DNA of 21,903 nucleotides from a virus, in UHGV virus genome UHGV-0149790, one strand, 5' to 3'. The notes under the pieces were generated by a model that was not told the origin of the DNA, did not search any database, and saw only the letters and a program-made list of their open reading frames with translations. Of the stretch, positions 1,700 through 19,262 are shown in pieces. Made by a program: the position numbers and the translations under genes. Within the stretch, counting starts at the first letter, position 1. Every line of letters starts with the position of its first letter.

Positions 1700-2688
1700 A
1701 GCGATCCCTCACGAGTTTTACGCAATGTTTCAGGCTTCATCAGGTAGTCAAAGCTGGCGCGCCATCCGCCATTTTCACCAAAGTAAAAATCGGAGGCGTC
1801 AGCGCGGAATTTTTCGAAATAGCCCAGAAATGCGCCCGTGGTTTTGTTTTTCATATGGGCGGCCAGACGGGTGATCATCCGGCGGCGGTCGGTGTCGAGT
1901 TCAGCAGCAGGCAGAGCGTCAGCAAAAATTTCGTTGTAGCCGTTCATAACGGCTTCGGGGTCAATATCGGCTTCGGTCACCGCCCATGCTTCAGCGTCAG
2001 CGAGATAACCATCAAAGCGGTTTACCCGGCAGATGTTCGCTGGCTTCGGCAGGCTATCGCCACGGCGGCGCCATGTGGCCAGCACCCAGCGGATAACTAA
2101 CTGCAATTCGTCCAGGGTGTAACCTTCCCGGGTGGTGGTCGGCGTCAGCATCATCACAAACGGTTTCAGGTCACGGCAGCGGGTACCGGTTTGCTCGTTG
2201 TAAAATTCCAGCGCTTTTTGTGCATCAGAAAGAATTAACTCAACGCCTTCCCCCTCTAAGGGGTTAGGGGTATATATATTCTCTGTAGTATTCTCTGTAA
2301 GAAAGTTTGCTGGTTTTCCACTTACTTGTTTGCTGGTTTTCCGCATTCCAGTATGTGGTTTTTCCGCATTCTTGTTTGCGGCTACAAGTGATTGAAATAA
2401 AACATCATTATCAATCTTGTAGAAAAGACGAGCAGGTACACCTTTCTTTTTTTCCAGCAGTACACCAATTGAGCGAAGTTTCTTACGCGCCCCCTCCTGT
2501 TCGTAACGGGAAAGGCCTGTTTCTTCCTCCCATTCTTCCTGGGTTTTATATACCCATCCATCATCGTCGGATCGGTTAGTCCAGTAAGTCATTTGAGACA
2601 GGAACAGTGCAGCCGTCACACCGATATTCAGGCGAATGAAACTACGCTGGAAGGCGATCGGCCTGTCGAGTAATGGCAAAATATTCAT
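1696..2688 (-). CDS. phage replication initiation protein (O-like replisome organiser) with origin iterons inside the coding sequence
   Basis: 330-aa ORF; two-domain layout with a Lys/Thr/Asn-rich linker coinciding with a direct-repeat array at 2305-2383; sits immediately upstream of, and coupled to, the helicase gene. Confidence 0.75.
   Translation of the reverse strand: MNILPLLDRPIAFQRSFIRLNIGVTAALFLSQMTYWTNRSDDDGWVYKTQEEWEEETGLSRYEQEGARKKLRSIGVLLEKKKGVPARLFYKIDNDVLFQSLVAANKNAEKPHTGMRKTSKQVSGKPANFLTENTTENIYTPNPLEGEGVELILSDAQKALEFYNEQTGTRCRDLKPFVMMLTPTTTREGYTLDELQLVIRWVLATWRRRGDSLPKPANICRVNRFDGYLADAEAWAVTEADIDPEAVMNGYNEIFADALPAAELDTDRRRMITRLAAHMKNKTTGAFLGYFEKFRADASDFYFGENGGWRASFDYLMKPETLRKTREGSL
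2266..2430. repeat. ori-like element: four iterons at 23-bp spacing flanked by AT-rich DNA
   Basis: GTTTGCTGGTTTTCC-like repeats starting at 2305, 2328, 2351 and 2374; CTCTGTA x2 at 2281-2299; AT-rich stretch 2391-2430; all inside the O-like gene, as with lambda ori. Confidence 0.55.
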
Positions 2689-3716: not shown

Positions 3717-4103
3717 ATGACAATGCCAGGTGAGCGCATCAGAGCGCGTAGAAAAGATCTCAAACTTACTCAGCGCGCTTTAGCGAAGCTGGTTAACGTC
3801 GCGCACGTCACTATCTCCCAGTGGGAGACCGGTGATAGTGAGCCTGGCGGAAAAAACCTTTTCGCTTTAAGTAACGCACTTCAATGCAGCCCTACCTGGA
3901 TACTTTACGGCGATGAAGCCGCCACTCCGGGAACCCCGGTAGACACCCCGCCGCCATTAGATGAACGAGAAACAGAGCTTTTAAAACTCTTTTCGTCACT
4001 CCCAGAATCTGAAAAAGAGCGGCATTTAACGGAACTTCGCGAAAAAGTAGACGGTTTCAATCGTTTATTTGAGGAGTTACTGCAAGCCCGCAAACAAAAA
4101 TAA
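3717..4103 (+). CDS. short HTH-XRE prophage repressor (DicA-like; no peptidase S24 domain)
   Basis: 128 aa; N-terminal HTH (GERIRARRKDLKLTQRALAKL...ISQWETGDSEPGGKNLFALSNALQCSPTWILYGDE) closely resembles recalled DicA; no Ala-Gly/Ser-Lys autocleavage module; divergent from the Cro-like gene. Confidence 0.85.
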   Translation: MTMPGERIRARRKDLKLTQRALAKLVNVAHVTISQWETGDSEPGGKNLFALSNALQCSPTWILYGDEAATPGTPVDTPPPLDERETELLKLFSSLPESEKERHLTELREKVDGFNRLFEELLQARKQK

Positions 4104-4965: not shown

Positions 4966-7164
4966 ATGACCATCTACAACGGCTCATTTGAGCCAAAGAA
5001 ATCGGCGATTAAAGACTGCGGCGCCGTGCAGCTGGCGATCGCCATCGATGCGCCAAACAAAAAAGTGGCCGAAAGCATTATGACCGGCAAACTCTGGGAA
5101 TCATACCCGGCCAATGGTGACAACTATTTCAAACCGAAACTGTGGGAACACGTTGAAGGCCAGCCGCTGCCGACCGTTGGCCAGTTCGATGAGTCATTCG
5201 CCCAGCAGCATACTTTTGACGGTGAAAAATGGGTTTCTACTGCGCAGGATAGCGCTTCCGGAAGTGGTGCAGGTTTACCTGCCGACGATGAAGTGATCGA
5301 CCTGATGACCGTTTCCCCTGATGAACGCTTTGCTGCCGTCCTGCTTTTTAGTACCGCGGCGATTGATGGCCATCTTTATTCTCAGGTTGTGGATTATCTG
5401 GATAATCTGAAAAACCACGATGGGGAATTTGAAGAGGAAGATCGCTTTAACTTTAATGTTCTGTGTGCCCTGCAAAATAACTTCCCGGTTCAAAGCATGC
5501 ATGTGGAAGGTCTGAACAATCTTATTCAGGGTATTTTCTCCCACTTTGAAAACCAGACGCCGGGCAAAGCGGCTATCTCTCAGTTCGTTAAACGCTGGCT
5601 TGAGAATCCGGGCAAGCGCGACGAACTGGCCCCCGGCGTATATAAAAATACCGCTCTCAGCACCAGCACCAGCACCAGCACCAGCACCAGCACCAGCACC
5701 AGCACCAGCACCAGCACCGATGATAAAACACCCGTGGTAATTTCTAAGCGCGGATATAAACACACTTATGCAACGCTGGATCAGGAGATCGCTACCGCCC
5801 TTCTCCCGCTGGCGCCTGATGCGCCGGTACTATCCGGAAACCTTCTGGACGCTAAGAAGATGATTTCCGATGACCGGGAAGATTTTAAACGCTGGTCAGC
5901 ATCGCTGCACACCACGCCGCAGATACTCAAATACGACCGCGCCAGCATCTTCGGCGTGGTACAAAACGTACCGGCGAAAGATACCTACCATTTCCCTGAC
6001 AGCCTGCGCCGCCATATCGATTCATGGCTGGCGGCCAACGGCCGCTTTGAGGAAACCGAGACAGGATCCGTTAAACAACCAGAGGCGACGCAAAATACCG
6101 CCTCAAACGTGGGCGAAAAAGTGGAAGCGCAGCAGCCGGTTGTAACCGACACCCAGGCCAAACAGGCGCGTGAGACGCTCAATGATATGGGTTATGGCGT
6201 ATATGCCTCTGGTGAAGGTGCAGAGCCGGAAGAGAAGTTAAGCGTTAAGGCTGAAAAACTGGCTGATGATTCCGAGCGTTTAGCAAAACAAATCGCTCAC
6301 GCTGAAAGCCTGCCTAACGCTGAGGATGTTGTGCAGGCTGTCGGAAAACCAATCATCGGGGAAGACAATTTAGACCTCTGGAAACGCGTATTTAAAACCG
6401 ACGAAAGGTTTACTAAGGCTTTCACACAGAACGGCGGTGGCACCTCGATCAACGGTACCTACATGACCATGCTTGCCACACGTGAGTTTGGCCCTAAGGG
6501 CATCGGCTGGGGCGTGGATATTGTTGAAGAGCGTTTCGATATTGGCGCGCCGATCACTCGGCAAGTAAAAGGCAAAGACAACAACGCATCGTGGGAGCTG
6601 GTTCTTGATGGGAATGGTAATACCGTCAACGAACAGCACCATGTTGTGACTGTCCGGCTCTGGTACATCCTGAACGGAGTACGAGGTGAGGAAACAGCAT
6701 ACGGCTGTACACCCTACATTTACGGTAGTAAATACGGGATCACCTGCGACGGCGAAGCAGCCAAAAAATCACTGACAGATGCGACCAAAAAAGCGTTATC
6801 CGGCCTCGGATTCAGTGGCGATATCTTTATGGGGCTTTACGACAATCTGGAGTACCGCCAGAAGAACAAGGCCGAGTTTGACCTGAAGAACGCCAGCGAA
6901 TCAGCCGAAGATGCAGCACGGCTCCGCCAGGAGTTTGACGATAAATTAAGCCGCGTTGCTAATACCCTGGCGCATGGCGTGACGGTGAACGAAATCAACG
7001 GTGTGTTTTCCCCTATCGCACGTGAGATCGATGTTCACATTAAAGCCGCCCAGGCCAACGGCGACACGCAGCATGAACGTTATCTGTCTGGCCGGCTCCG
7101 CCGACTCATCTCCATCAAAGATGGGCGCATTAAAGAACTGAATAAAGCCGAGGAGAAAGCATAA
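4966..7164 (+). CDS. large recombination protein: N-terminal region of unknown function, (Ser-Thr)10 linker, C-terminal Rad52-like single-strand annealing domain
   Basis: ATG at 4966 preceded by GAGGAAAGACCA; C-terminal motif GCTPYIYGSKYGITCDGEAAKKSLTDATKKALSGLGFSGDIFMGLYD matches the Rad52/Sak signature (K-x-A-V-T-D-x-x-K-R-A-L-x-x-F-G); 733 aa from this start. Confidence 0.7.
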   Translation: MTIYNGSFEPKKSAIKDCGAVQLAIAIDAPNKKVAESIMTGKLWESYPANGDNYFKPKLWEHVEGQPLPTVGQFDESFAQQHTFDGEKWVSTAQDSASGSGAGLPADDEVIDLMTVSPDERFAAVLLFSTAAIDGHLYSQVVDYLDNLKNHDGEFEEEDRFNFNVLCALQNNFPVQSMHVEGLNNLIQGIFSHFENQTPGKAAISQFVKRWLENPGKRDELAPGVYKNTALSTSTSTSTSTSTSTSTSTSTDDKTPVVISKRGYKHTYATLDQEIATALLPLAPDAPVLSGNLLDAKKMISDDREDFKRWSASLHTTPQILKYDRASIFGVVQNVPAKDTYHFPDSLRRHIDSWLAANGRFEETETGSVKQPEATQNTASNVGEKVEAQQPVVTDTQAKQARETLNDMGYGVYASGEGAEPEEKLSVKAEKLADDSERLAKQIAHAESLPNAEDVVQAVGKPIIGEDNLDLWKRVFKTDERFTKAFTQNGGGTSINGTYMTMLATREFGPKGIGWGVDIVEERFDIGAPITRQVKGKDNNASWELVLDGNGNTVNEQHHVVTVRLWYILNGVRGEETAYGCTPYIYGSKYGITCDGEAAKKSLTDATKKALSGLGFSGDIFMGLYDNLEYRQKNKAEFDLKNASESAEDAARLRQEFDDKLSRVANTLAHGVTVNEINGVFSPIAREIDVHIKAAQANGDTQHERYLSGRLRRLISIKDGRIKELNKAEEKA
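5659..5718. repeat. perfect hexanucleotide tandem repeat (AGCACC)x10 encoding (Ser-Thr)10
   Basis: Ten uninterrupted AGCACC units read directly in the sequence, in frame within the 4966..7164 CDS. Confidence 0.95.
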
Positions 7165-7917: not shown

Positions 7918-7966
7918 CTCGCAACTGTCGTTAGCATTGTGATCTACCTATGAACCGGAGATCACA

Positions 7967-8191
7967 ATGCTACGTTGGCAACCAGGCACACTTTTACTTT
8001 CAGATTTCGATATCAAAATTGGCAGGCTATCAGCCAGCGTTAGAAAGAGGACTCTGACCCAGTCCGATATCCAACGCGCTTGCGATACGGCAGACAACGC
8101 GATAGCCGGCATGCTGAGGAAAGACCATGAGACACGATCACGACATCATCACCAGAGAGGAAATGATCGAACTGACGGGGACCCCACTTAA
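7967..8191 (+). CDS. hypothetical small basic protein
   Basis: 74-aa ORF whose ATG sits in the 3' arm of an 11-bp perfect inverted repeat; overlaps the excisionase-like ORF in another frame; weak support. Confidence 0.3.
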   Translation: MLRWQPGTLLLSDFDIKIGRLSASVRKRTLTQSDIQRACDTADNAIAGMLRKDHETRSRHHHQRGNDRTDGDPT

Positions 8192-8372
8192 ATCGAGGCA
8201 GTGTGAAGCGCTACGTCGGGCCGGTGTCTTTTTCATGGAAAGGGCAGACGGCCATCCTAAAACGACGTGGGGCCATTTCCTGAACCCGATTAAATACCGC
8301 AACCAGCAGGAAGAGACGGTGCGGGAGGAAGAACCAGACTTCGGAGCTATCTTTAATGGCCGGAAAACGTAA
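8127..8372 (+). CDS. excisionase-like DNA-binding protein
   Basis: 81-aa ORF immediately upstream of and overlapping the integrase start; the ITREEMIELTG...ALRRAGVFF segment fits small winged-helix excisionases; positional support. Confidence 0.5.
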   Translation: MRHDHDIITREEMIELTGTPLKSRQCEALRRAGVFFMERADGHPKTTWGHFLNPIKYRNQQEETVREEEPDFGAIFNGRKT

Positions 8373-9372
8373 GAACCCCGCTGATAACTGGATGCCGCCC
8401 CGCGTGTATCGCGGTAAGGCGGCGTATGAATTCAGGAATAAAGATAACAAGGCTATCAGGCTATGTGCGCTCTCCGAGCCTCAATCAGCTGTATGGCTGG
8501 CATATGAAAAAGCCATGGGAGAAGAAGTCGAGCGCAAGACGTTTCAGGCTCTGGCCGATCAATTCATGTCTTCCCCTGACTGGCAGGATTTAGCGGCAGA
8601 AACCCGAAAAGACTACACGAAATACGCAGGCAAAGTGTTGCCGGTGTTCGGGAAGGTTAACCCCGATAAAATTAAACCGGAACACATCCGGCGCTATATG
8701 GATCAGCGTGGCATGGCCAGTAAAACGCAGGCCAACCGGGAAAAGAGTTTTCTTTCTCGGGTATTCCGCTGGGGTTATGAGCGGGGTTACGTCCAGCATA
8801 ATCCCTGTCAGGGCGTTAAGAAGTTCAAAGAGGCAGCCCGGGAGCGTTACATCACCGACGAAGAATACAAAGCGGTTTACGATGTTGCTCCAGACGTAGT
8901 TCGCGCCACCATGGAAATCGCTTATTTGTGTCTGGCCAGACAAAGCGATGTGCTGGCTTTGACTGAAGACCAGATACGCGAAACCGGGATCTTTATCCGC
9001 CAGGGGAAAACAGGCGTGAAGCAAATCAAAGCATGGTCGCCACGCCTGCGCGCCGCTGTCGCCCTCGCCCGTTCCCTGCCGTTAAAGCCGGGTATCCGTA
9101 GCCTGTTTGTCATTCACCAGACCAGCGGCAGCAAATACACCCGTGACGGTTTTAATTCACGCTGGCGCGACGCGAAAATCGCAGCGCAGGAAAAGAACCC
9201 ACACCTGCAGATAGATTTCACTTTCCACGATCTGAAAGCGAAAGGTGTCTCTGATCTGGAAGGAAGCCTCGAGGAGAAACAGGCGATTTCAGGCCATAAG
9301 AATTCGAGACAAACGGCGATTTACGACAGGAAAACTAAAATTGTGCCGGTTGTTGGTGGTCAGAAAAAATGA
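8356..9372 (+). CDS. int: tyrosine site-specific integrase (lambda Int family)
   Basis: 338 aa; C-terminal catalytic region with HDLKAKGVSD, GHKNSRQTAIY and the terminal Tyr; 3' end faces the att core 120 bp away. Confidence 0.9.
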   Translation: MAGKRKNPADNWMPPRVYRGKAAYEFRNKDNKAIRLCALSEPQSAVWLAYEKAMGEEVERKTFQALADQFMSSPDWQDLAAETRKDYTKYAGKVLPVFGKVNPDKIKPEHIRRYMDQRGMASKTQANREKSFLSRVFRWGYERGYVQHNPCQGVKKFKEAARERYITDEEYKAVYDVAPDVVRATMEIAYLCLARQSDVLALTEDQIRETGIFIRQGKTGVKQIKAWSPRLRAAVALARSLPLKPGIRSLFVIHQTSGSKYTRDGFNSRWRDAKIAAQEKNPHLQIDFTFHDLKAKGVSDLEGSLEEKQAISGHKNSRQTAIYDRKTKIVPVVGGQKK

Positions 9373-9433
9373 ATCGCTATGCGTTCGTTGAAAAATCATC
9401 TTCGGACGCATCTTCGGAAAGGAGAGTTTCAGA

Positions 9434-9458
9434 TACAAAAAAACCACCCGTAGGTGGT
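9434..9458 (-). terminator. intrinsic terminator between int and the att core, strongest on the minus strand
   Basis: AACCACC-cgta-GGTGGTT stem (9441-9458) preceded by AAAAAAA (9434-9440), a T7 run after the hairpin on the minus strand. Confidence 0.55.
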
Positions 9459-9492
9459 TTCACGACACTGCTTATTGCTTTGATTATTCTGC

Positions 9493-9548
9493 TTTATCCC
9501 AATGGTACCCGGAGCGGGACTTGAACCCGCACAGCGCGAACGCCGAGG
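9493..9548 (-). other. att core: 56-nt 3'-terminal fragment of tRNA-Leu (anticodon UAA), not an intact tRNA gene
   Basis: Minus strand reads ATTTAAAATCCCTCGGCGTTCGCGCTGTGCGGGTTCAAGTCCCGCTCCGGGTACCA: anticodon loop, long variable arm, T-arm GGTTCAAGTCC, acceptor 3' strand and CCA. The 5' half of the tRNA is absent (sequence diverges at 9549). Confidence 0.75.
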
Positions 9549-9696
9549 GATTTTAAATTGGTGGTGATTATTCTAAATATCAAATAGATATGAAAAAAAT
9601 CCGAACATACGCTAATAAACTAGCATCATGAAAACAATAAGTTACAGCAATGTTTTAGACTATCTTCTGACGCTTATCATACCTCAAATTCAATAT

Positions 9697-9936
9697 TTAT
9701 TCAGTCGCGCGGTACCACGATTGCCAGCGGTAGATATTCGTACGTAACTCCCGCACACACTCTGCTGACTGTGTATCCGCCAGCAGATCAGCGTCGCTAT
9801 CTGCGCCAGCGTTACTTATCTTGCACGGTCGGTTCATCAAATCCGGGGATGGCGTTGGCCGCGTCGATTGCTCGTTGGCGCAGCTGCACAGCAGCAGGAT
9901 CAAACTGGCACACAGTACGATTCGGGTCATTGACAT
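9697..9936 (-). CDS. Rz1-like o-spanin (outer-membrane lipoprotein), overlapping the Rz gene
   Basis: Signal-like N-terminus MSMTRIVLCASLILLLCSCANE with Cys near the cleavage region, Pro-rich mature part; out-of-frame overlap with Rz and extends past it. Confidence 0.5.
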   Translation of the reverse strand: MSMTRIVLCASLILLLCSCANEQSTRPTPSPDLMNRPCKISNAGADSDADLLADTQSAECVRELRTNIYRWQSWYRATE

Positions 9937-10171
9937 ATTTCACCACATCACGATAAACGGTACGGTAAATCACTTTGGCTTCGGCGTTCGCCGTCGCTGC
10001 TTTCTGCTCACCAGCGGCAACTGCCTTTTCCTGCTTCGGTAGCCTTTGTTTAGCCTGGCTGTTTACTTGCTCTGAATGTGCGTACCAGCCTTTCAGATAC
10101 CCCGCCCAGTAAATCCCGGCGCATACCGCCAGCACGCCACCAACAATCACCAGTTTGGTTTTTCCGTTCAT
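9812..10171 (-). CDS. Rz-like i-spanin
   Basis: N-terminal TM segment (KLVIVGGVLAVCAGIYWAGYL) then a charged, Ala/Gln-rich periplasmic domain; ATG at 10171 overlaps the endolysin stop (ATGA). Confidence 0.7.
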   Translation of the reverse strand: MNGKTKLVIVGGVLAVCAGIYWAGYLKGWYAHSEQVNSQAKQRLPKQEKAVAAGEQKAATANAEAKVIYRTVYRDVVKYVNDPNRTVCQFDPAAVQLRQRAIDAANAIPGFDEPTVQDK

Positions 10172-10704
10172 TCGTACAGCCCCCAGCACGTCAAAGCGCT
10201 TTCCTGATCGCGGCGGTCAACCTGCCCGTAGCAGCCATTCTTCTGGCCTTTGGTCAGTCGGCAATCCCGGCCTCCGTCGAACACCCATCGCCGGATCTCC
10301 GCGCATGCACCTTTACGGTCGCCTGCGTTCAGCTTGCGATAGAACGTTGAGGGGAAGCATTTACCCGGCCCGATGTTGTACGGGCAGAATGAGGCTATGC
10401 CGACCTTCTGCGGCGGCGTCAAAGAAACGAGCACATTCTTTTCTACCCAGGCAAGCGCCTTATCACGCTCAATGGCGTTTACCTTCCTGCACTGTTCCTC
10501 AGTTGCTCTTTGGCCCTTAATGACACGCTTGCCATCTATAACGGTTACTCCGTGGCACAATGACCACACACCGCCGGGGTCAACAACGGCCACCAGCGCG
10601 TTACCTTCTTTTTCGCTGATAAACTGATCGAACAGTATCGGTGCAGATGCACCGGCGGCCAGAAGCGCCAGCATAGCGGCGCTGAACTTAGCTTTGTTGC
10701 TCAT
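10168..10704 (-). CDS. SAR endolysin (T4-type lysozyme fold, phage 21 R-like)
   Basis: Start at 10704 ([25 protein letters not shown] = signal-anchor-release segment); catalytic-region pattern E...D...T and C-terminal [14 protein letters not shown]...ALTCWG resemble recalled R21; overlaps the holin 3' end. Confidence 0.85.
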
Positions 10705-10918
10705 AGTCCTGTGCCTTCCGCCGGTCGTCTTTGATTTTGAAGTACAAATTAGTGAGGTAGGTAAGCAGCCCAAAAACAATACTGGCCAGTACGCCAATAG
10801 CCGCCCACTGGCTGGGGCTTACCTTATCGAGAAGTTGCAGCAGCCAGTAGCTCCCGCTGACAGTGGATGTGATGTACGACGTGCCAGCCGCCACATCCGG
10901 TAAATTCTTCATTCGCAT
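10688..10918 (-). CDS. pinholin (class II holin, phage 21 S-like) with dual-start motif
   Basis: 76 aa; ...[43 protein letters not shown] matches recalled S21; starts Met-Arg-Met, the classic antiholin/holin dual start. Confidence 0.85.
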
Positions 10919-10975
10919 GCCTTACCCCCATGGGGATCACTATGTGGAGTGATGCGAGGGTAAGGCGAAGCTAAG

Positions 10976-10989
10976 GTCAGAATCCTGAC
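10976..10989. repeat. 14-bp palindrome GTCAGAATCCTGAC (copy 1 of 2)
   Basis: Perfect inverted repeat 57 nt upstream of the holin start on the minus strand, at the edge of an AT-rich island. Confidence 0.6.
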
Positions 10990-11000
10990 TAAATGAAATT

Positions 11001-11270
11001 CTATATTTGGAGTTTTCTTTTAAGTGATTCCTCTGCCTCTTCAAGAGGGCTTCCTGACCCAGAATACACAAAAGAATGGGTAAGCTCCCCACAGGAAAGA
11101 CAACCATCAATGCTAACTTTAAATGAAACAGTCGCTGTTCCATTATTTAGCGATATTAACGATACAGCCTGGTATTCAACTTCAATCGATGTATCTTCTG
11201 ATGGCATCCATACACCTAGCGTTGGATATGCTATAGATTTTCCTATGGTCTGCGTCACTCTGAAAGTCAT
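11001..11270 (-). CDS. hypothetical protein in an AT-rich island between tailspike and holin
   Basis: ATG at 11270 with GAGG 5 nt upstream, overlapping the tailspike stop; 89 aa, beta-rich; a plus-strand ORF (10993..11283) covers the same DNA, so strand is uncertain. Confidence 0.35.
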   Translation of the reverse strand: MTFRVTQTIGKSIAYPTLGVWMPSEDTSIEVEYQAVSLISLNNGTATVSFKVSIDGCLSCGELTHSFVYSGSGSPLEEAEESLKRKLQI

Positions 11271-11277
11271 ATTAGCC

Positions 11278-13797
11278 TCATGAATTAAAAGGAACAACAT
11301 AATCAAAAGTACACTGGAGAGTAAAATCAAAAGTACCAGCTGCTTGAGAATATATTTCTTGGGCTGACGATTTTATAATCGTCATTTGATTTGTCCCTGC
11401 AGGAACAAGCGGCATAACAAAAACTCCTGTAGCCGTGCTTAGAATTATGCTTCCTTTAGACCCACCCTCCTGTATTGAGGCGGCTGTAAAAGGAAGACCA
11501 CTAATGACTATGGCTCCCGCAGTACTAACCAGTAAAGAGGTTGATCTGACTCTTATATCGCAACGAACAACATCACCAAACCTACGGTAAATTCCAGTAA
11601 TGGATGATGGCGTTACGCTTGCCCCGCCAATTGTAATAGTTGGTGTGAATGAGCCATAAAGATACTTAAACTGAGCAGCATTACCACCGGGAAAAGCTAT
11701 TGGCGGCATATAGGCATCATTTCGATTAAAAACATACTTATCGGATAAATTTGTTCCGTTTAACTCCTGAAGACCGAAAAGACGATAGTTTGAATTATCT
11801 CCAAGCTTTCTTTGAGCAACTATATTCTCACCGGCACCGATTCTTGTGCCGTTAAATTCATTAACTGGGGCAGCCTGAACCGCGCCACCTTTTACAATAT
11901 CAAGGGCGAAAATATTTCCTCTTGTTGCCATCGCTGGAAATGTTGAAAGAGATGGTTCGTAGGGATCAACATTATTAACATTAAATCTATTTCCAGCAAC
12001 ATCACCAAGGCCATACTTGATGATTCCTACCCTTTCCAGTATAAGAGTCCTTATTTTACTGTTACCAACATATGATTTAAATCCGTCAACGAATTGAGCA
12101 GAGTGGTAGAATGGCGTTCTTGGAGACCACAGCACTTTAGCCTCACCAATATTGCAATGCAATATCTCCCTTCCCGGAAGTGAAATAATAGTTCTTGCGC
12201 GCCCAGCTATACCTCTATAGGTATCAACTGGGTAAACCCCATTCTGCTGATTATTTGACAACCGACCACCGCTGGCCGTAGGCAAGCAGTTTGCAGACTT
12301 GAAAACATACGTATCAAACCAAGTGTCAAGAGCGGCATATGCTGGATGTGTCCAGTCCATGCCGGTATCACCATAATAATGAAACTTGTCTACATGGTAC
12401 GAATCATTCCATCCCGCCCGATGAATATCTGATGCCGGGTACGGCGGAAGGTACTGAGACGCGTATGCATGATTTCTCGTTAGCCAGCGCCCGCCAAAAA
12501 CAGGGCCTGTAATATTATACCAATATAATGTCAGCCCAGTTTGCGCCAGAGAATCAGATCCTTGATAACAAGCAGGAATGGCACACCCTGAGTACATCAT
12601 ATTATTTTCTACACAGCGGTTTACAGTCCCGTCTACCCATTGCCCAATAAAGAATCCGCTAATCCTGAAATCAGAAAGGTGATACTTTATGTATTGATCT
12701 GGTCCGCTGTCACCTGCGATGTATAGACCCATGGAAGATGTATGATCCCATGGTCCCGCAGTTTTTGAAAAATTACCAATAATCCCACAATTGTGTTGGT
12801 TTTCACCAACAATCATTGAATCATCATAAACACGCAGTGCTGCTTTTGCCTTAACTGGTATTTCAGGAGCAATATTTGAATCACCGTTCCCTATCCACCC
12901 TGGGTATACAGTCCCATCGTCGAATGGCAAATTAAACTCTATCGGTGAAGATATGCACGGATACATTTTAGTTAAATATACCGGAAGGTTATTAGCTTTT
13001 CCGTAATCTATAGCTGCCTGTAGAAATTTAGTTGCATCAGCAGTGATGCCGTGAATATATCTTTCACCATTAATCCTTATCATTTCAGGGGTTACGTATT
13101 TTATTGCATCTTCAACGGTGCCTCCAGTAAGAACCCCTATATGCCCGCTACCTGTCGGTTTGGCATACTCAATCATTACATCTGCTGCACTTCCACTCGA
13201 AGGCAATACCATCAATGGATTGCCATTATTATCCATTGCAACGATTTTATTTTTTCGTTCTGCAATGGAAGGTAACGGTGTGATGCTAGACTCCGGAACG
13301 CGTAGAGTACGAGCTAGATTAATTTTTCCATTTTCAATTACAAATTTTTTAGTAGCTGCATCCTGATCGTTAACTGGATCGGCCAGATTTGCTATCCGGT
13401 AGCCGTTAGCGTTGAAAGGTCCACCGCCGAACAGCGGGCGACTTAGGGCCACTCCGAGATAAATAAACGCGCGCTGAGTAGCCATCCAGAGACGGTCAAA
13501 ATCTTTGTTAACTGTATCGGCCAGCAGGTCGCCGTTGTCCTGGTAATCAGTGAGCCTGTAAGTCGGCGTTACACGTTCAAAAATGACTGTAGCGCCATTG
13601 GCCGGCGCGGTCAGAAAAGTAACTTCGCCACCGCCAGTATTACCCACACCAGACACTGTATAGCCGGACGTTACTTCGTTGCCGTTGATTGTGACCTGAA
13701 TATCGCTGGCGCTGATCAGGTAAAACTCATAGGCAAAGACAGTCGTCAGCCCGTTGGCGGTATAGATGTTATAGGGTGTCTGGTTCGGTACCGACAT
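11278..13797 (-). CDS. tailspike / tail fibre with T7 gp17-like N-terminal adaptor domain and probable beta-helix depolymerase body
   Basis: 839 aa; N-terminal approx. 150 aa (...NANGYRIANLADPVNDQDAATKKFV) parallel recalled T7 gp17 (...RGRRIVNLANAVDDRDAVPFGQL); Gly/Asn/Ser/Thr-rich repetitive body typical of polysaccharide depolymerases. Confidence 0.8.
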   Translation of the reverse strand: MSVPNQTPYNIYTANGLTTVFAYEFYLISASDIQVTINGNEVTSGYTVSGVGNTGGGEVTFLTAPANGATVIFERVTPTYRLTDYQDNGDLLADTVNKDFDRLWMATQRAFIYLGVALSRPLFGGGPFNANGYRIANLADPVNDQDAATKKFVIENGKINLARTLRVPESSITPLPSIAERKNKIVAMDNNGNPLMVLPSSGSAADVMIEYAKPTGSGHIGVLTGGTVEDAIKYVTPEMIRINGERYIHGITADATKFLQAAIDYGKANNLPVYLTKMYPCISSPIEFNLPFDDGTVYPGWIGNGDSNIAPEIPVKAKAALRVYDDSMIVGENQHNCGIIGNFSKTAGPWDHTSSMGLYIAGDSGPDQYIKYHLSDFRISGFFIGQWVDGTVNRCVENNMMYSGCAIPACYQGSDSLAQTGLTLYWYNITGPVFGGRWLTRNHAYASQYLPPYPASDIHRAGWNDSYHVDKFHYYGDTGMDWTHPAYAALDTWFDTYVFKSANCLPTASGGRLSNNQQNGVYPVDTYRGIAGRARTIISLPGREILHCNIGEAKVLWSPRTPFYHSAQFVDGFKSYVGNSKIRTLILERVGIIKYGLGDVAGNRFNVNNVDPYEPSLSTFPAMATRGNIFALDIVKGGAVQAAPVNEFNGTRIGAGENIVAQRKLGDNSNYRLFGLQELNGTNLSDKYVFNRNDAYMPPIAFPGGNAAQFKYLYGSFTPTITIGGASVTPSSITGIYRRFGDVVRCDIRVRSTSLLVSTAGAIVISGLPFTAASIQEGGSKGSIILSTATGVFVMPLVPAGTNQMTIIKSSAQEIYSQAAGTFDFTLQCTFDYVVPFNS

Positions 13798-13814
13798 ACG
13801 AGGAACTCCGGCGG

Positions 13815-15425
13815 CTAGTAATCTACGGCGACCATGTGATCGCCATCATTTGGTTGCCAATGTTCCCGCGCCTGTGCGGTCGGAATCCCGACCAATTTAC
13901 CAATGCGCACTGGTGTTGAGCTGATTGCGCCAGAGCCAGAGTCGATAAAGTCATCTGGCTGATTAGTCAGCGCCGGGTTAAAGTCGCGCATCTGGTCATA
14001 CATTGGGCCGTCGAGCACGTCGGTATGCGCCCAGAGGAAGCGCGACGACAGCGGCGCTTCGAATGCATCGAGGATGCGCTTTTGTTTATTGGTCACGCTG
14101 AATTCTTCCCGTACGCCGCAGCCGGTACCCTTTAGTGCCTGAATCAGCAATTTCCCGGCAAAGCTGCCCGGGCCGTTCACCTCGACGCAGACCAGCGGGA
14201 TCTGGTATTTAAGCACCAGCTCTTTAATCTGCATCACCTGACCGCCGGTGATTTTGTCGTTGTCGTCGAATTCCGCCAGTTCGCCCGTAAGCCCCTGGCA
14301 AACATGCCAGTACAGATGCCCGCGTGCGTCGGTGAAAATCAGAGAGAACGCCGAGGCGTCGGCCTTAACTTTGCCGGTGGCCACATCCCACCAGGCAACA
14401 GCACCAACAATTTGCGTCTGGCCAAGCCACATCGAGCAGGAGCGGTTCGCGTACCGGATTTCAGGCTGTACGTTGTATTCGCGTATGCGGTCGGGATCGA
14501 GACGAACCTCGCCAACCGGTTTACTGTGCAGCTGGTACTGGCTGTCCCATTCGTTAATTGTGCGAGTCTCGCGACGGCGCTTTGTCATTTCCTCCGGAGT
14601 GAACCTTTCTGGCCATTCACAATCGGCGTAACAGTCAACCGTGGTGCCGGGAGCCTCGGCAAACTCGATACCGTCATCGTTAAGACGATAATCAACACCT
14701 TCAACGAGCAGTCGCGCGCCAATGTGAATACCGACGAAAACATATTCCGGCCGGAACGGTAACGAGTAACGGCTCGCGGTGGCCTGTTTTTCCTCGATTC
14801 TAAATTCTTTACCGAATAGTTTGATGGTCAGACAGTCGGCGCCCATAGATTCAACCTCATCGTAAAGGCTATCGTGGGTATGCGGCGTGCCGATAAACAG
14901 CTTTCGCCCGCCGGGGACAAGAATGTGTGTCTGTTCACCGAGACGATAACGCAGCTTTTCCCGCGCCTCTGGCGTCTGGATATTGCGGGGTACTTCTACG
15001 TCATCGTTCTGGCATTCATCAGCGCGGGCCGAGGTAACGTTAGAGAGGATCCCCTTTGCGTACATGCTGCCGTTACGCATATCCAGAGAGCCGTTAACCC
15101 ACCACTGTTCAACGGTTCCCTGTCCGTCCGGTAGCATGCCTTTGGTCAGTGGGTGATTGCGTAAAACGTTCTGCGTATCGCGGCTGGTTTTGTACGCGGT
15201 GCCGTCAGCTTCAGACTGGTGAAGAATGCGGTACTGGCGGTTCTGGTAATATCGCCATGCGTTATACACCGCCAGAATGGTAGATTTACCAAAGCCACGA
15301 AAACAGCGAAGCACCGCGAGATCCCCGCGGTGTTCCAACCAGTGGCAGGCTCGATAATGGCAGTCGGGAACCTCCCACCCCATCCGCTCCGCCCATATGA
15401 TGAAAAAGGCGACGAATGAAATCAT
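13815..15425 (-). CDS. terminase large subunit, T7 gp19 type
   Basis: 536 aa; CFRGFGKSTI (cf. T7 AFRGIGKSFI) and TSARADECQNDDVEVPRNIQTPEAREKL (cf. T7 [27 protein letters not shown]); start overlaps the upstream stop (ATGA). Confidence 0.9.
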   Translation of the reverse strand: MISFVAFFIIWAERMGWEVPDCHYRACHWLEHRGDLAVLRCFRGFGKSTILAVYNAWRYYQNRQYRILHQSEADGTAYKTSRDTQNVLRNHPLTKGMLPDGQGTVEQWWVNGSLDMRNGSMYAKGILSNVTSARADECQNDDVEVPRNIQTPEAREKLRYRLGEQTHILVPGGRKLFIGTPHTHDSLYDEVESMGADCLTIKLFGKEFRIEEKQATASRYSLPFRPEYVFVGIHIGARLLVEGVDYRLNDDGIEFAEAPGTTVDCYADCEWPERFTPEEMTKRRRETRTINEWDSQYQLHSKPVGEVRLDPDRIREYNVQPEIRYANRSCSMWLGQTQIVGAVAWWDVATGKVKADASAFSLIFTDARGHLYWHVCQGLTGELAEFDDNDKITGGQVMQIKELVLKYQIPLVCVEVNGPGSFAGKLLIQALKGTGCGVREEFSVTNKQKRILDAFEAPLSSRFLWAHTDVLDGPMYDQMRDFNPALTNQPDDFIDSGSGAISSTPVRIGKLVGIPTAQAREHWQPNDGDHMVAVDY

Positions 15426-15763
15426 TTTTTCCGCTGTTGTATGCGTTCGATAACTTCCTGTGCTGCCCGTTCAGCCGCAGATACCTGTTGCCCCAGGCGG
15501 AATGCTTCATCGTCCGGATCCTCGCCGGGTTTAGGCGTCCCCCCGCGCGTATGCATGCCAATCAGCGAATGGACTTTTACCAGCAGCGTCAGCGATGCGG
15601 CCGCGTTCTTCTTATGCCAGTACCGATCACCGCGTTCCTGTTTAGTGTGCTTTGTGATTTCCTTCCCTGCCCCCGGCCAGTTGTCCGGATCGGCTTCTTC
15701 CAGAACTACATCGGTGAGCTTATCGCTAAGAGCAGTAAGGCGAGTTTTGTAATCTGAATGCAT
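15422..15763 (-). CDS. putative terminase small subunit (positional inference)
   Basis: 113-aa ORF translationally coupled to the large terminase gene; no sequence signature recognised. Confidence 0.4.
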   Translation of the reverse strand: MHSDYKTRLTALSDKLTDVVLEEADPDNWPGAGKEITKHTKQERGDRYWHKKNAAASLTLLVKVHSLIGMHTRGGTPKPGEDPDDEAFRLGQQVSAAERAAQEVIERIQQRKK

Positions 15764-15811
15764 AAAAAAGCCCCGTGGTTATCCATAGAGCTATGATGTA
15801 TTCTTTTTGAG

Positions 15812-15825
15812 GTCGGAATCCTGAC
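15812..15825. repeat. 14-bp near-palindrome GTCGGAATCCTGAC (copy 2 of 2)
   Basis: One mismatch to the 10976-10989 copy, with shared flanks GGTC.GAATCCTGACTA; 48 nt upstream of the small-terminase start on the minus strand and 20 nt upstream of the plus-strand moron ORF. Confidence 0.6.
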
Positions 15826-15845
15826 TATCACAAGGAGTAAATAGA

Positions 15846-16364
15846 ATGAAGATATTAATTCCATTGTTGCTAATCTTTCACTTTGCAGCATTCGCATCAA
15901 CCGATTTAGTTGATGACTCTAAATATATCGTTCCTATATCCGGACCAGGAATACAGATTACCAATCCATATACCGACTATACGGTCATTAACGGTATCGA
16001 CACTGGTAAAAAAATTGAGATCCATGTATCGGTATTACACTTGCGAACCTATAAAGAAAACGCAGATTTTAGTGAAACTAATACTCACTATGTGGAAGGA
16101 AGTAAAACCATATCTAGTTACAATGCCAATGTTTACACAGACGATTTTATAAAATTTACATCAGAAGACGCTAAAAATTCAACATTGAAAAATTTAAGGG
16201 ATTTGTATTGTGCACCAGATGGATTTTACCCAGTGTCATCTCAAGAGCGGCTATTCTACGAAACCCGAAAAGAAAATAAAAAAATAATGATCAATTACTA
16301 CAGTGATTCAGGGAAAACCCTCATGTTTGGGTTTGGGGTTTCCCCCGAATCATGTAAGTCGTAA
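15846..16364 (+). CDS. secreted or periplasmic protein of unknown function encoded by an AT-rich moron, opposite in orientation to the late operon
   Basis: 172 aa; AAGGAG RBS 9 nt upstream; signal peptide MKILIPLLLIFHFAAFAS; markedly AT-rich, wedged between two minus-strand late genes. Confidence 0.7.
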   Translation: MKILIPLLLIFHFAAFASTDLVDDSKYIVPISGPGIQITNPYTDYTVINGIDTGKKIEIHVSVLHLRTYKENADFSETNTHYVEGSKTISSYNANVYTDDFIKFTSEDAKNSTLKNLRDLYCAPDGFYPVSSQERLFYETRKENKKIMINYYSDSGKTLMFGFGVSPESCKS

Positions 16365-16367
16365 TAG

Positions 16368-19262
16368 CTATCGCATTCCCGGATCAACCTGATTAAGCAG
16401 TGGGGCAATCCAGAACAGGTTATTACCCGGCAGTAACGTACGCACACTATGCAAAACACGATCGCCGGCATCGCCGTTAAGCACGCCGGCGGTCACATCA
16501 GTAACGGTATCCAGCAGGCCGAAGGTTGGCCCTAGCGCAGAACCGATAAAGCCACGGCTGGCGTAACGGGACTGCGTACCGGTACCGAGCAATGGCCCGA
16601 GCCCTATCATCCCACCGGATGCCTTTTCCGCCATGTTGTTGTATTCCATCAGCGGGCCGAGAATACCAGAGCGGTCGATGCCCTCGATTACCATTTTCTG
16701 CGGAGTCAAATCAACCTCCCGGCCGTTGGCCGCCTGCTTAAGCGCATAGGTCAGTGAACCAAGGCCAATCTGGAAGGCGGTACCGTAATAGAACTGCGCG
16801 GTACCTTCCTGCAGGCCGCCGAGCGTCGCGCGGTTATAGGATGCCGTAGCAAAAGACTTAAACTGGAATACGGTTTTTCCCAACGGGGTGCTGGCCCACA
16901 ACGGCGTGTCACCGATACCCGGCGTGATAACGGTATTGTTTACATCCTTGAGCACAGCAGATTGCAGAAGTCCAGCGGCGTACTGGTCATCCCATTTTTC
17001 GAAATTGCCGATATGCCAGCCCTGAATAACTTCACCGTGCCTCTGAAATTCTCGCTGGATGCGTTCGGCCATATTCTCGTTGATGCCGAGTTTTGCCAGG
17101 CGCTTCGCAGGGAACGCGCCGGACAGAATACCGTCGGACGTGATCATGCCATTCACCGATTTGTTCATATCGTCAAAGTGGCCCATCATGGTCAACTTGC
17201 CGAACACATCAGTAATACGTTCCATGCCAGCTTCTGCAGCTGTCGTACGAGAAGAGCTATCGACCAGATCCCCCATAGTACGCGCGCGGGTATGCAGTAT
17301 GGTTTCCAGCCCAACGGCCATTTTCTTCTGCTCCGCCCGGCTGGCGAGATAAGCCGGAGAGCGGGTGATCAGTGCGCCATATCCACGCATGGTATTGCTG
17401 AAGCCGTTAACCATCATGCCGCGCGCCAGATCCGGGATAGCGGATACCGTCATGCCGCCGAGTTTCGTTACAAAGTTGGCGCTACGCAGGAAAGCACCAG
17501 CGCGAACGAAAAATGATGATGGGTCATCCGGCATACCGTAGGTACCGACGAGGCGATCGCGAAGCGCCAGAATATCGCGCAGGTCGGCTTCGCGCGCCTT
17601 CGCCAGCTTTTCCTGTTCTGCTGGGCGTAAACGCATCAGCGCGTCGTATTCGTCCTGGATGGCGGCGAGCTGCGAATCCAGCGACTTGTTGCCGAACGTA
17701 CGGGTTAATTCGATCTCCGCTGAGGCTTCGCGGATATGACGCTGCAGGACGTAATTTGCATCACTCTCCAGATAATCTTTCATCAGGCGATCGGGGACGC
17801 TCAACGTTCGCGATTTGGTGCTACCTGGTGCTTTCACCATGAAGACGTTGGCGAACTCCTGCGGAATTTTGGCCCCGACGATACGGTTAATCGTGGTATC
17901 GGCGGCGATTTCGGCATCTTCGCGGGACATGGTTTTTTCACCACGTGACCACCAGTCAACCAGCATATTGCGGAATTTATCGCGCTCGCTAACAATTTTC
18001 CCTACCTTGTACACGCGAGGGAAATAGCTGGTCTGCCCCATCGCTTTCAGTTCGGCATCCGGCGGAAGCAAACCCAGCTCCTGCTGTGCCGTCTTCACGC
18101 GGTTAATGACTGTGCGCATTGCCTGCGCTGCTTCCTGCACTTTCGCATTAACGTGCACGTCGCCGTTACGCAGCGCCTCGCCGACCTGTTCACGGAAAGC
18201 CGTATGACCCAGATCGCCGCCTTCAGCTTTATACTGAGTGTATGCCTGCTTATTCGCAGTAACGACGGCCGCCTCTTCGCGGCGCCAACCACGTACGCGC
18301 GTCTCGGCAGCTACCGGAGTTTCGATACCGCGCAGGTTTCCTTCCAGCGTGAAGTTATTCTCCGCTAGCTCCAGCGCTGTCCGGCGCGCTTCTTTTGACG
18401 GGGATTCCATCAGTCGGGTGATCGGCGTGAGATAGCTACCGGCTTTTTTAGCCAGCTTGCCAAGCGGGCCGCCAGACACCGGCGTGAGGTCTTCCAGTGT
18501 AGCTTCGCGAATACGCATGGCGCCGACGCTGCCACCGTTCGGTAAAGTATCCGCCAGGGCGTCTGCTGCGTTGTTAATCGTTGGCGAGACGTTCATATTA
18601 TCGAGCGCCTCTGCCACTTCACGCGTGGCCGCGTTTCTTACCGCTGGAGTGATCATCGCGCCAGCAGTGGCGAATACACCGCTTAGAAGTGCGCCGGCTG
18701 TGATGTGTGCTGCGCTCTCCCTGGCGGTTCTGGTGTACTGCTCGTTATTGAGCGCTACCTCGCTAAGTGCGGTACCGGCGGCGCCAATAGCAACCTGAGA
18801 ACCAATACGCGCAGCCAGGCTTCCCTGCGCACCGGGAATAAACATTGATGCTACTGTGATAGGGTCAAGCATGCCAGACGCAATATTCGCTAAAGTTCCG
18901 CCCCATCCTGCCTCAGCAGTAACGCGCCTATCTTCATTTTCTTCATCAATCTGGTTTTTAATCCAGGCGGTTTCCTCTGGGGATTTTGAATCAGCGAAGG
19001 CAGATCCCCATTGTTCGTACCCCTTTAGTTCGTTTTTATCAGAATAAGGGTTATACCCCTCCGCTGTCTCGAACTGTTTAGCCGGGCGGAACACTCCGGC
19101 CAGCAGGTTATTCTGACGAAAAGCGGCATCCCATACAGACGGTTGCTGTTGCAGCGGCTCCGGGTTAGTTCCTTCAGGCAGAGAGACATCAAAACCAGTT
19201 GGCGCCTGAAGAGCATTATCCATTACGCTCGGTGGAACATCAGATTGCGGATAGATCGGCAT
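16368..19262 (-). CDS. large virion structural protein (internal core / ejection-protein-like)
   Basis: 964 aa, Gly/Ala-rich, coupled to the upstream virion protein gene (1-nt overlap); located where T7/SP6-like phages encode internal virion proteins; no specific motif recognised. Confidence 0.55.
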   Translation of the reverse strand: MPIYPQSDVPPSVMDNALQAPTGFDVSLPEGTNPEPLQQQPSVWDAAFRQNNLLAGVFRPAKQFETAEGYNPYSDKNELKGYEQWGSAFADSKSPEETAWIKNQIDEENEDRRVTAEAGWGGTLANIASGMLDPITVASMFIPGAQGSLAARIGSQVAIGAAGTALSEVALNNEQYTRTARESAAHITAGALLSGVFATAGAMITPAVRNAATREVAEALDNMNVSPTINNAADALADTLPNGGSVGAMRIREATLEDLTPVSGGPLGKLAKKAGSYLTPITRLMESPSKEARRTALELAENNFTLEGNLRGIETPVAAETRVRGWRREEAAVVTANKQAYTQYKAEGGDLGHTAFREQVGEALRNGDVHVNAKVQEAAQAMRTVINRVKTAQQELGLLPPDAELKAMGQTSYFPRVYKVGKIVSERDKFRNMLVDWWSRGEKTMSREDAEIAADTTINRIVGAKIPQEFANVFMVKAPGSTKSRTLSVPDRLMKDYLESDANYVLQRHIREASAEIELTRTFGNKSLDSQLAAIQDEYDALMRLRPAEQEKLAKAREADLRDILALRDRLVGTYGMPDDPSSFFVRAGAFLRSANFVTKLGGMTVSAIPDLARGMMVNGFSNTMRGYGALITRSPAYLASRAEQKKMAVGLETILHTRARTMGDLVDSSSRTTAAEAGMERITDVFGKLTMMGHFDDMNKSVNGMITSDGILSGAFPAKRLAKLGINENMAERIQREFQRHGEVIQGWHIGNFEKWDDQYAAGLLQSAVLKDVNNTVITPGIGDTPLWASTPLGKTVFQFKSFATASYNRATLGGLQEGTAQFYYGTAFQIGLGSLTYALKQAANGREVDLTPQKMVIEGIDRSGILGPLMEYNNMAEKASGGMIGLGPLLGTGTQSRYASRGFIGSALGPTFGLLDTVTDVTAGVLNGDAGDRVLHSVRTLLPGNNLFWIAPLLNQVDPGMR

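Follow-up and report, generated by a model that had tools for sequence, protein, structure and literature searches.

The holin leader and its dual start

The 21,903-nucleotide (nt) stretch of the UHGV virus genome UHGV-0149790 analyzed here, hereafter the window, carries on its minus strand a lysis cassette that begins with the gene for a 76-amino-acid (aa) holin and continues with a putative signal-anchor-release (SAR) endolysin and two overlapping spanins. The untranslated leader of the holin mRNA, which ends at two closely spaced in-frame AUG codons, contains several inverted repeats that a preliminary description had proposed as a structure for lysis-timing control. The current analysis indicates that this leader is probably a translational control element, one that throttles holin translation and selects between holin and antiholin. 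The following features make up the leader and the start region.

10919-10990, minus strand: untranslated leader of the holin mRNA
10975..10990, minus strand: 16-nt motif AGTCAGGATTCTGACC, which opens the leader; the GC content falls here from 0.54 to 0.39
10956..10966, minus strand: 5' arm of the outer stem, GCCUUACCCUC, the anti-Shine-Dalgarno segment
10936..10953, minus strand: inner hairpin AUCACU-CCACAU-AGUGAU, recognized from sequence and fold
10926..10935, minus strand: local hairpin CCCC-AU-GGGG, the counterpart of the sdi hairpin of lambda S
10919..10929, minus strand: 3' arm of the outer stem, GGGGGUAAGGC, which holds both Shine-Dalgarno elements
10910..10918, minus strand: dual start AUG-CGA-AUG (Met1-Arg2-Met3)
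10918..10688, minus strand: holin, 76 aa (MRMKNLPDV...), class II, phage-21 S family, a candidate pinholin/antiholin pair
10919-10927 and 10958-10966, plus-strand reading: outer repeat GCCTTACCC/GGGTAAGGC, 9 nt, 100% complementary, with 30 nt between the arms
10926-10935, plus-strand reading: palindrome CCCCATGGGG
10936-10941 and 10948-10953, plus-strand reading: inner repeat ATCACT/AGTGAT

All the inverted repeats that had been listed are present and lie on the minus strand directly upstream of the holin gene. Their arrangement, however, is not one of simple enclosure: the outer repeat was described as enclosing CCCCATGGGG, but the latter overlaps the outer 3' arm, so that the G-run can pair either with the neighboring CCCC or with the distal ACCCUC and the two helices compete. 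The same G-run is the Shine-Dalgarno sequence of AUG1, with GGGGG located 6 nt before this codon, while UAAGG is located 7 nt before AUG2. In the minimum-free-energy fold of the window sequence, GCCUUACCCUCG pairs with UGGGGGUAAGGC and the AUCACU/AGUGAU hairpin is nested inside, which gives a two-tier stem with an asymmetric internal loop between the tiers. The nested palindromes of the preliminary description thus exist, but not all their details matter: the perfect palindromy of CCCCATGGGG is incidental, since the relatives described below have CCC-(3-4 nt)-GGG with nonpalindromic loops (e.g., CCCCACAGGGG and CCCUUCGGGG), and the inner hairpin is missing in a third of the family.

On the window sequence alone, the outer repeat is unremarkable. 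Perfect 9-mer inverted repeats with loops of 3 to 60 nt gave 13 hits (8 separate repeats) in the window, compared with 4.2 ± 2.3 in shuffled sequence, and a single 9-nt inverted repeat is not rare here. Folding of the holin leader, which had been suggested as a check, did predict a buried ribosome-binding site, but the fold of the 131-nt leader region has a z-score of only -1.9 and the predicted burial is equaled by 10 of 300 shuffles of the upstream sequence. The leader stands above chance because its 3' arm is the Shine-Dalgarno region abutting AUG1 and because the same plan recurs in 71 distinct leaders.

The holin open reading frame (ORF) does open with ATG-CGA-ATG, and the earlier suggestion of a dual-start antiholin/holin pair receives strong evolutionary support. 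Among the 87 viral contigs that were retrieved without demanding a second ATG, ATG-NNN-ATG is found in 86 and codon 2 encodes Arg in 85 (CGA in 43, AGG in 38, CGC in 2, and AGA in 2, with GGG in 1); in L010, the Sodalis locus, codon 2 is Lys (AAA). The use of four Arg codons, differing at up to two positions, indicates that it is the amino acid that is selected and, hence, that AUG1 is translated. The near-universal second Met, 7 nt from UAAGG, would fit a second start, and, judging by this pattern, both AUGs are presumably used. In RefSeq, the Escherichia coli holin homologue (L001, positions 6071-6301 of NZ_CM180093.1) is annotated from the second ATG only (position 6077), and the conserved upstream ATG-CGA is omitted.

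Six contigs combine the same leader and Met-Arg-Met start with a different holin of 109 aa (MRMNPQNNWLSW...), which has no Pfam hit but matches the phrog_1350 holins (E = 8e-10). This start region therefore behaves as a portable module, independent of the holin that it precedes. The viral contigs listed with this fusion are L092, L111, L138, L141, L154, L162, and L290; the breakpoint is right after the dual start, where L121 has a truncated ORF of 29 aa.

Conservation and pairing of the leader

With the holin protein as the query, loci were retrieved from 185,000 species genomes. All eight genome loci with a holin match of at least 70% identity from residue 1, which come from Raoultella, Pluralibacter, Trabulsiella, Enterobacter, Shimwellia, Dryocola, and Sodalis, carry the leader plan of the window; so does one E. 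coli prophage. Scanning viral contigs for the DNA pattern contributed another 87 contigs, mostly of ∼35 kb; in total, 71 distinct homologous leaders were gathered, 60 of which were aligned. The eight genome loci, the E. coli prophage, and the window make up a set of 10 sequences chosen independently of the leader pattern. The plan was not found in the more distant S21-type holins of lambdoid prophages.

From 5' to 3', the plan begins with the motif RGTCRGGATTCYGACC, directly after the stop codon of whichever gene lies upstream, followed by an unconserved 8-nt spacer and GCCUUACCCUC. Then comes a segment of 17 to 24 nt, in which a CACU/AGUG-based hairpin is found in 40 of the 60 aligned leaders (it is absent in the GUGAGG subfamily) and nothing in the remaining sequences. 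The plan is completed by CCC(C/U)-2 to 4 nt-GGGG, GU(A/G)AGG(C/U), and AUG-(Arg/Lys)-AUG. Pairwise identities of the blocks, and of the gene that follows them, are listed below.

Spacer: 0.32 (near random)
Loop of the local hairpin: 0.36-0.38
Holin coding sequence: 0.66-0.71
Core of the 5' arm: 0.86-0.89
CCC: 0.93-0.98
3' arm: 0.92
16-nt motif: 0.91-0.93

The block identities are unchanged in the 10 sequences that were not picked by the leader pattern. For a leader block to be more conserved than the gene itself and, in addition, to be the exact complement of the Shine-Dalgarno region is good evidence that it is functional, and purifying selection on the leader is supported by these comparisons.

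In the 60 aligned leaders, 93.9% of the alignment cells of the outer stem are paired. Departures are mostly C>U or A>G, by which G-U pairing is kept; a true two-sided change occurs only at the terminal pair, from G-C to A-U. The local CCC/GGG helix is paired in 100% of the cells and never varies. The inner hairpin, where present, has pair-preserving variants (UCACU/AGUGA, CCACU/AGUGG, and GCACU/AGUGU) that include two-sided changes from U-A to C-G and from A-U to U-A, as well as G-U. Because the columns of the arms are nearly invariant, covariation is weak and the shuffle controls are uninformative. A relaxed scan, in which the 3' arm was left unfixed, brought only three new leaders, with GGAGG, GAGGG, or AAGGG replacing GGGGG, and zero compensating changes.

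A further helix, between UCGCAU just after the 5' arm and AUG1-CGA, which would hide AUG1 alone, was considered and rejected: it is 68% paired, a level reached by 231 of 500 shuffles. A helix of this type is real only in the L089/L111 subfamily, where it takes the register CCUCAUGCC:GGCAUGAGG; in leaders of this type, it is predicted to serve as an alternative outer helix that hides AUG1 and leaves AUG2 free. No curated RNA family (Rfam 15) matches the leader. A permissive scan of positions 9300-16500 gave a single sub-threshold chance hit elsewhere, to rliB (26.9 bits versus the gathering score of 40).

Predicted accessibility of the ribosome-binding site

The Shine-Dalgarno block is predicted to be unpaired with a probability of 0.048 in the window and of 0.08 on average over the 71 leaders (range, 0.00 to 0.36), compared with 0.275 when the upstream sequence is shuffled and 0.50 for lambda S. 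To expose UAAGG and the two AUGs, a predicted 12.7 ± 2.4 kcal/mol would be required, versus ∼1.9 kcal/mol in lambda; for the whole block, the prediction is 20.3 ± 3.4 kcal/mol, versus ∼9.9 kcal/mol in lambda. The outer stem is used by the minimum-free-energy fold in 56 of the 71 leaders.

Comparison with lambda S and phage 21

The start region of lambda S, aaatCCCCttattGGGGGTAAGACATGAAGATG, has a clear counterpart in the window, gatCCCCatGGGGGTAAGGCATGCGAATG. The lambda hairpin and start sequence reads CCCCttattGGGGGTAAGACATGAAGATG, and the E. coli relative has GGGGGTAAGACATG, which is identical to lambda over these 14 nt. A scan of the viral contigs for GGGGGTAAGRCATGMRRATG found lambda S-type holins in every new locus. 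In lambda, initiation at the two start codons and, with it, the holin:antiholin ratio are governed by the sdi structure (PMC3359269). The Met-Lys extension of S107 adds a positive charge, which prevents the first transmembrane domain (TMD) from inserting into the membrane (PMC6116005). The two systems share the layout CCCC-loop-GGGGGUAAG(A/G)C-AUG-basic codon-AUG, in which the G-run is the 3' arm of a small hairpin, and in both the longer product is distinguished by one extra basic residue. Judging by sequence, the CCCCATGGGG hairpin is the counterpart of sdi, and the Met-Arg-Met start with its CCCC/GGGG hairpin follows the pattern of lambda S, not that of phage 21.

The differences from lambda S (Met1-Lys2-Met3; S107 antiholin and S105 holin) are also substantial. 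Codon 2 is Lys in lambda and Arg here; the lambda holin has three TMDs, whereas a class II S21-type holin follows the leader of the window; and the hairpin loop is 5 nt in lambda and 2 to 4 nt here. The leaders described here have an additional conserved distal anti-Shine-Dalgarno arm and usually the inner hairpin as well, with a predicted cost of start exposure of ∼13 kcal/mol as opposed to ∼2 kcal/mol in lambda. Finally, lambda S heads the late operon, whereas the holin gene of the window ends it. The lambda leader (L083, 45120-45185) was compared with positions 10919-10993 of the window, with TCAGTAATC-GACCTTA opposite TCAGGATTCTGACCTTA and CCTTATTCC opposite CCTTACCCTC. Its upstream part aligns weakly with the region of the 16-nt motif, and 15 to 17 of 1,000 shuffles score as well; the leader as a whole may be related by descent to that of lambda S.

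The assignment of the cassette to the phage-21 type in the preliminary description holds for the proteins but not for the start and the hairpin: S21 starts with M-K-S-M and has an unrelated leader. The likeness to phage 21 includes the gene order and gene overlaps, a holin that is 63% identical to S21, and an endolysin with a hydrophobic, Ala/Gly-rich N terminus. On the other hand, Rz1 is embedded in Rz in phage 21, whereas here it overlaps Rz and passes its end; the endolysin is only 34% identical to that of phage 21, with Ser instead of Thr in the catalytic triad and an extra Cys-rich insert; and phage 21 is a lambdoid siphovirus, in contrast to the podovirus-type mosaic described below. The S21-type holins of the lambdoid loci L011-L082 have four-codon dual starts (M-K-S-M, M-Y-R-M, M-L-R-M, and M-I-R-M), and each has an upstream CACC(C)GC that is, by inspection, complementary to its Shine-Dalgarno sequence GCGAGGUG. 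This complementarity suggests that burial of the ribosome-binding site before a dual start recurs in the holin family, and it appears to be general there.

Proposed mechanism and alternatives

The conservation of the leader and the predicted burial of its ribosome-binding site would fit a role in controlling the timing of lysis. In the proposed mechanism, the leader could adopt three states. With the outer stem formed ("off"), GCCUUACCCUC would pair with the whole GGGGGUAAGGC block and bury both ribosome-binding sites. With the local hairpin formed instead, GGGG, which serves AUG1, would be hidden, while UAAGG and AUG2 would be open and holin would be made. With neither helix formed, AUG1 would become usable, yielding the longer antiholin with its one extra positive charge (Arg). 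The net effect would be a low rate of holin synthesis at a set holin:antiholin ratio, and this level and ratio would determine pinholin triggering and the release of the membrane-tethered endolysin. As the holin gene comes last in a heavily expressed late operon, strong repression could plausibly delay the moment when the pinholin reaches its triggering level. For passing a barrier of 13 to 20 kcal/mol, the leading ideas are a kinetic window during transcription, when the local hairpin would form first, and processing by a nuclease; a helper could also be involved. We infer that these folds probably form in vivo and set the lysis time.

Several points weigh against translational control by these folds. 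True covariation is sparse and its formal support is weak, the structure that was tested for pairing was itself derived from the window sequence, and the RNAalifold consensus lacks the outer stem, keeping only the local hairpin and a trivial CAU/AUG mini-helix. As the motif and the greater part of the 3' arm were prescribed in the scans, the invariance of these parts in the 87 viral contigs is partly a matter of construction. For 15 of the 71 leaders, the local hairpin forms within a different outer helix, in another register, in the minimum-free-energy fold, and the modeled barrier of 12 to 20 kcal/mol looks too high for independent initiation, so that an opening mechanism would be needed. 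For the working of sdi in lambda, the details used here are reportedly those of Blasi et al. 1989 and Chang et al. 1995.

The scarcity of covariation could be taken to mean that the conservation has nothing to do with folding. In that case, the G-run and UAAGG would do no more than provide a strong ribosome-binding site, the upstream CCUUACCCUC would serve as a recombination joint or be bound by a protein or the ribosome, and the complementarity of the two segments would be incidental. Besides the near absence of two-sided changes in the outer stem, which RNAalifold misses, this explanation would profit from the position of the leader at a mosaic joint where tailspike genes and even holins are exchanged. 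However, coincidence can hardly account for an 11-nt block that is better conserved than the coding sequence and forms an exact complement to the Shine-Dalgarno region. Most substitutions in the 5' arm are C>U, so that pairing with G is kept, and the complementarity between CACC(C)GC and GCGAGGUG in the S21-type genes indicates that burial recurs with unrelated sequences. This explanation is improbable.

The height of the barrier lends some appeal to another alternative, in which the nested stem is an element of RNA processing or stability, such as an RNase III site of the kind found between T7 genes. In its RNase III version, a lower stem of 11 to 12 bp, an asymmetric internal loop, and an upper hairpin would form the substrate, and cleavage would separate the lysis mRNA from the structural mRNA; cleavage could also free the ribosome-binding site, in which case the structure would activate translation and not merely repress it. 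Such a role would agree with the two-tier shape of the stem, its location at the junction of the structural and lysis modules, the T7-like structural genes, and the mechanism of opening that a barrier of 12 to 20 kcal/mol calls for. Yet the stem is on the short side for RNase III, a third of the family lacks the upper hairpin, Rfam gave no match, and no processing is needed to explain the dual start or the lambda-like hairpin. As an explanation of the leader, a processing element is likewise improbable. The view that the palindromes act as DNA, either by binding a dimeric regulator as its operator or by terminating or attenuating transcription of the upstream genes, can hardly be right: CCCCATGGGG is a perfect DNA palindrome in the window, but its center is nonpalindromic in the relatives (CCCCACAGGGG, CCCTTCGGGG, and CCCCACCGGGG), the stem is followed by AUGCGAAUGAAG with no T-run, the terminator scan came up empty at 10919-10966, and there is no sigma-70-like promoter in 10919-11000.

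Viewed as a translational control element, the leader reinforces and enlarges the sdi and dual-start device of lambda, the principle of which is already known. What the family adds is a lambda-type start region that recurs in front of unrelated holins, with a long-range anti-Shine-Dalgarno arm as reinforcement. The timing of lysis is a central fitness trait of phages, yet we know of only a few cases (lambda S and S21) in which its control at the RNA level has been elucidated. The many natural variants of this leader could be used for testing the contributions of mRNA folding and of the holin protein sequence to setting the lysis clock. In practice, the gain is modest: holin starts can be annotated better, and lysis cassettes could be fitted with a ready-made tunable leader.

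Proteins of the lysis cassette

The genes that follow the holin gene and the end of the operon are as follows.

10168..10704, minus strand: SAR-type endolysin, 178 aa; its start overlaps the 3' end of the holin gene by 17 nt
9812..10171, minus strand: Rz-type inner-membrane spanin, 119 aa (phrog_2536, E = 1.9e-45); its start (ATGA) overlaps the endolysin stop
9697..9936, minus strand: Rz1-type outer-membrane lipoprotein spanin (phrog_5672, E = 2.3e-18), with a lipobox-like LLLCSC
9440..9461, minus strand: intrinsic-terminator-like hairpin that closes the late/lysis operon, with a 9-bp stem GAAACCACC/GGTGGTTT followed by the T-run TTTTTTTG

The phage-21-type cassette of the preliminary description is borne out at the level of homology, with a PF04971 holin, an R21-like lysozyme, and overlapping Rz and Rz1, and by sequence the cassette appears to be an ordinary member of this type; the pinholin and SAR-endolysin behaviors are candidate properties suggested by the same homology. 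The holin matches PF04971 (Phage_holin_2_1, "Bacteriophage P21 holin S") over residues 8-69 with E = 1.8e-30 and 105 bits, compared with a cut-off of 26, and its matches among the PHROGs are phrog_9876 and phrog_20. It has two predicted transmembrane segments: TMD1, which is weakly hydrophobic, rich in small residues, and aligns with TMD1 of S21, and TMD2 with a G-x3-S-x3-G face, whose residues G42, S46, and G50 are shared with S21. Pinholins of this family are characterized by small pinholes (∼2 nm) that form once TMD1 has left the membrane and through which a cytoplasmic endolysin cannot be released, and R21-type endolysins by Sec-dependent export, tethering to the membrane, and release upon depolarization.

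The endolysin belongs to the PF00959 lysozymes (E = 6e-20), muramidases of the T4-lysozyme fold. Its best relatives of known structure are PDB entries 3HDE and 3HDF, two forms of the phage-21 SAR endolysin (E of ∼6e-17), followed by RrrD. Residues E33-D42-S48 align with the R21 triad (Glu-8 aa-Asp-5 aa-Thr), with Ser replacing Thr, which is present in the E. coli relative. A direct reading of the sequence finds that residues 7-25, located after the Lys-rich MSNKAK, are weakly hydrophobic and include 10 Ala, Gly, or Ser residues out of 19. The Pro after the sole A-S-A would disfavor cleavage by signal peptidase, and the lack of Cys in the N-terminal segment points to the R21 type as opposed to the P1 Lyz type. 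The Rz protein has the N-terminal transmembrane segment KLVIVGGVLAVCAGIYWAGY. Rz1 starts within Rz in another frame and extends 115 nt past the Rz stop, that is, the two genes have the overlapped architecture.

A 16-nt motif in the late operon

The motif that opens the holin leader is found at two more places in the window.

13878..13893, minus strand: copy 2, GGTCGGGATTCCGACC, within the 3' end of terL, 80 nt upstream of the start of the tail fibre/tailspike gene
15811..15826, minus strand: copy 3, 47 nt upstream of the 113-aa ORF that precedes terL

With up to 3 mismatches allowed, three matches were found in the window, where 0.12 would be expected; all three are on the minus strand. In the E. 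coli relative, there are five distinct sites against 0.10 expected (six listed matches, with one site matched on both strands). The position of copy 2 is conserved in L003, L084, L089, L109, and L124, and the sites in L084 are at 23713, 27453, 38188, 40126, and 42412. Over all the loci, RGTCRGGATTCYGACC occurs in 177 distinct contexts, on the coding strand of the late operon and 47 to 150 nt upstream of gene starts; the genes that it precedes are the first late ORFs, the capsid gene, the 113-aa ORF before terL, the tail fibre gene, and the holin gene.

The motif resembles a 6-bp hairpin with a GAUU loop, in which positions 1 and 5 are often A, resulting in A-C mismatches. A simple RNA hairpin was rejected as an explanation, with such mismatches common and G-U variants rare. 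The 3' half of the motif almost never shifts to the benign U, which points to directionality and to selection for something other than pairing alone. A promoter within the motif was also rejected, as there is no common -10-like block at a fixed distance downstream. The motif has no Rfam match, and its recurrence through the late operon is the most unexpected item of this analysis, without a known counterpart.

In a broader view, the leader would be a portable "lysis-clock" RNA with three folds (repressed, holin-only, and antiholin-permissive), gated by cotranscriptional folding or processing and recombined onto at least three types of holins (lambda S, S21-like, and phrog_1350), and it would be coupled to a 16-nt late-gene signal placed before the capsid, terminase, tail fibre, and lysis genes. 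This extended scheme is speculative and, as a whole, unlikely; if it were true, the motif would represent a new kind of late-gene regulatory signal.

In the relatives, unrelated tailspike genes end exactly at the motif (in E. coli, the gene encodes a sialate O-acetylesterase), which indicates that it marks a recombination joint between modules. The GC content has a step at ∼10990-11000, from 0.54-0.59 in the lysis cassette to 0.38-0.41 in the upstream 89-aa ORF and the tailspike gene.

Phage context

Other genes of the window that bear on the nature of the phage are the following.

11270..11001, minus strand: 89-aa ORF upstream of the holin gene, phrog_7836, function unassigned
8356-9372, plus strand: integrase, adjoining the lysis cassette
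3717-4103: CI-type helix-turn-helix repressor
1696-2688, minus strand: RepO-like initiator
311-1699, minus strand: DnaB helicase

Further upstream of the holin gene, the minus strand encodes an 839-aa tail fibre/tailspike protein with a T7 tail-fibre N-domain, TerL, the 113-aa ORF, and two large internal virion proteins. These include virion and packaging proteins of the T7 type (the PF03906 tail-fibre N-domain, the PF22530 terminase domain, the phrog_342 internal virion protein, and the phrog_38 TerL). The window also encodes YdaT, a Gp157 protein, and a 743-aa exonuclease. No single-subunit phage RNA polymerase was found in the early region of the window or among the annotated genes of the E. 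coli relative, the closest complete one, from which the absence is deduced for the ∼14 kb of the phage outside the window. Accordingly, the T7-like late operon of the preliminary description stands as far as the T7/BPP-1-like structural genes and the placement of the cassette at the end are concerned, but the phage is temperate and has not yielded a polymerase of this kind.

The E. coli prophage, which is 80% identical to the window over the leader and the lysis genes, sits at tRNA-Leu and has the gene order int ... early ... late ... lysis, with repressors, RepO, DnaB, and integrase present. In the window, the lysis genes adjoin int, which identifies it as the circular (attP) form of a temperate mosaic of ∼36 kb; no tRNA was detected in the window at the attachment site. 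This mosaic combines lambdoid early genes with virion genes of the T7/BPP-1 type. The nearest named isolates by TerL are Yersinia phages YeP4/5/6 (80% identity), and YeP4 has been grouped with the BPP-1/Bcep/Xfas53-like podoviruses (PMC8579659). The likeness to BPP-1, Bcep, Xfas53, and YeP4 includes a Bbp19-family protein (in the E. coli relative) and the T7-type tail-fibre and internal virion proteins, whereas the early region with its CI-like repressor, RepO, and DnaB is lambdoid here and the lysis module is lambdoid derived.

An ORF of 172 aa (phrog_8033; 15846-16364, plus strand) lies between the internal virion protein gene and the 113-aa ORF, and the E. coli relative has a counterpart in the corresponding position; this ORF, of unassigned function, could be a moron-like insertion into the late operon. 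At 14 nt, TAGCATTGTGATCT (7932-7945 and 7959-7972, with a 13-nt loop) is the longest of the perfect inverted repeats of the window and is located just upstream of the small ORFs that precede the integrase gene.

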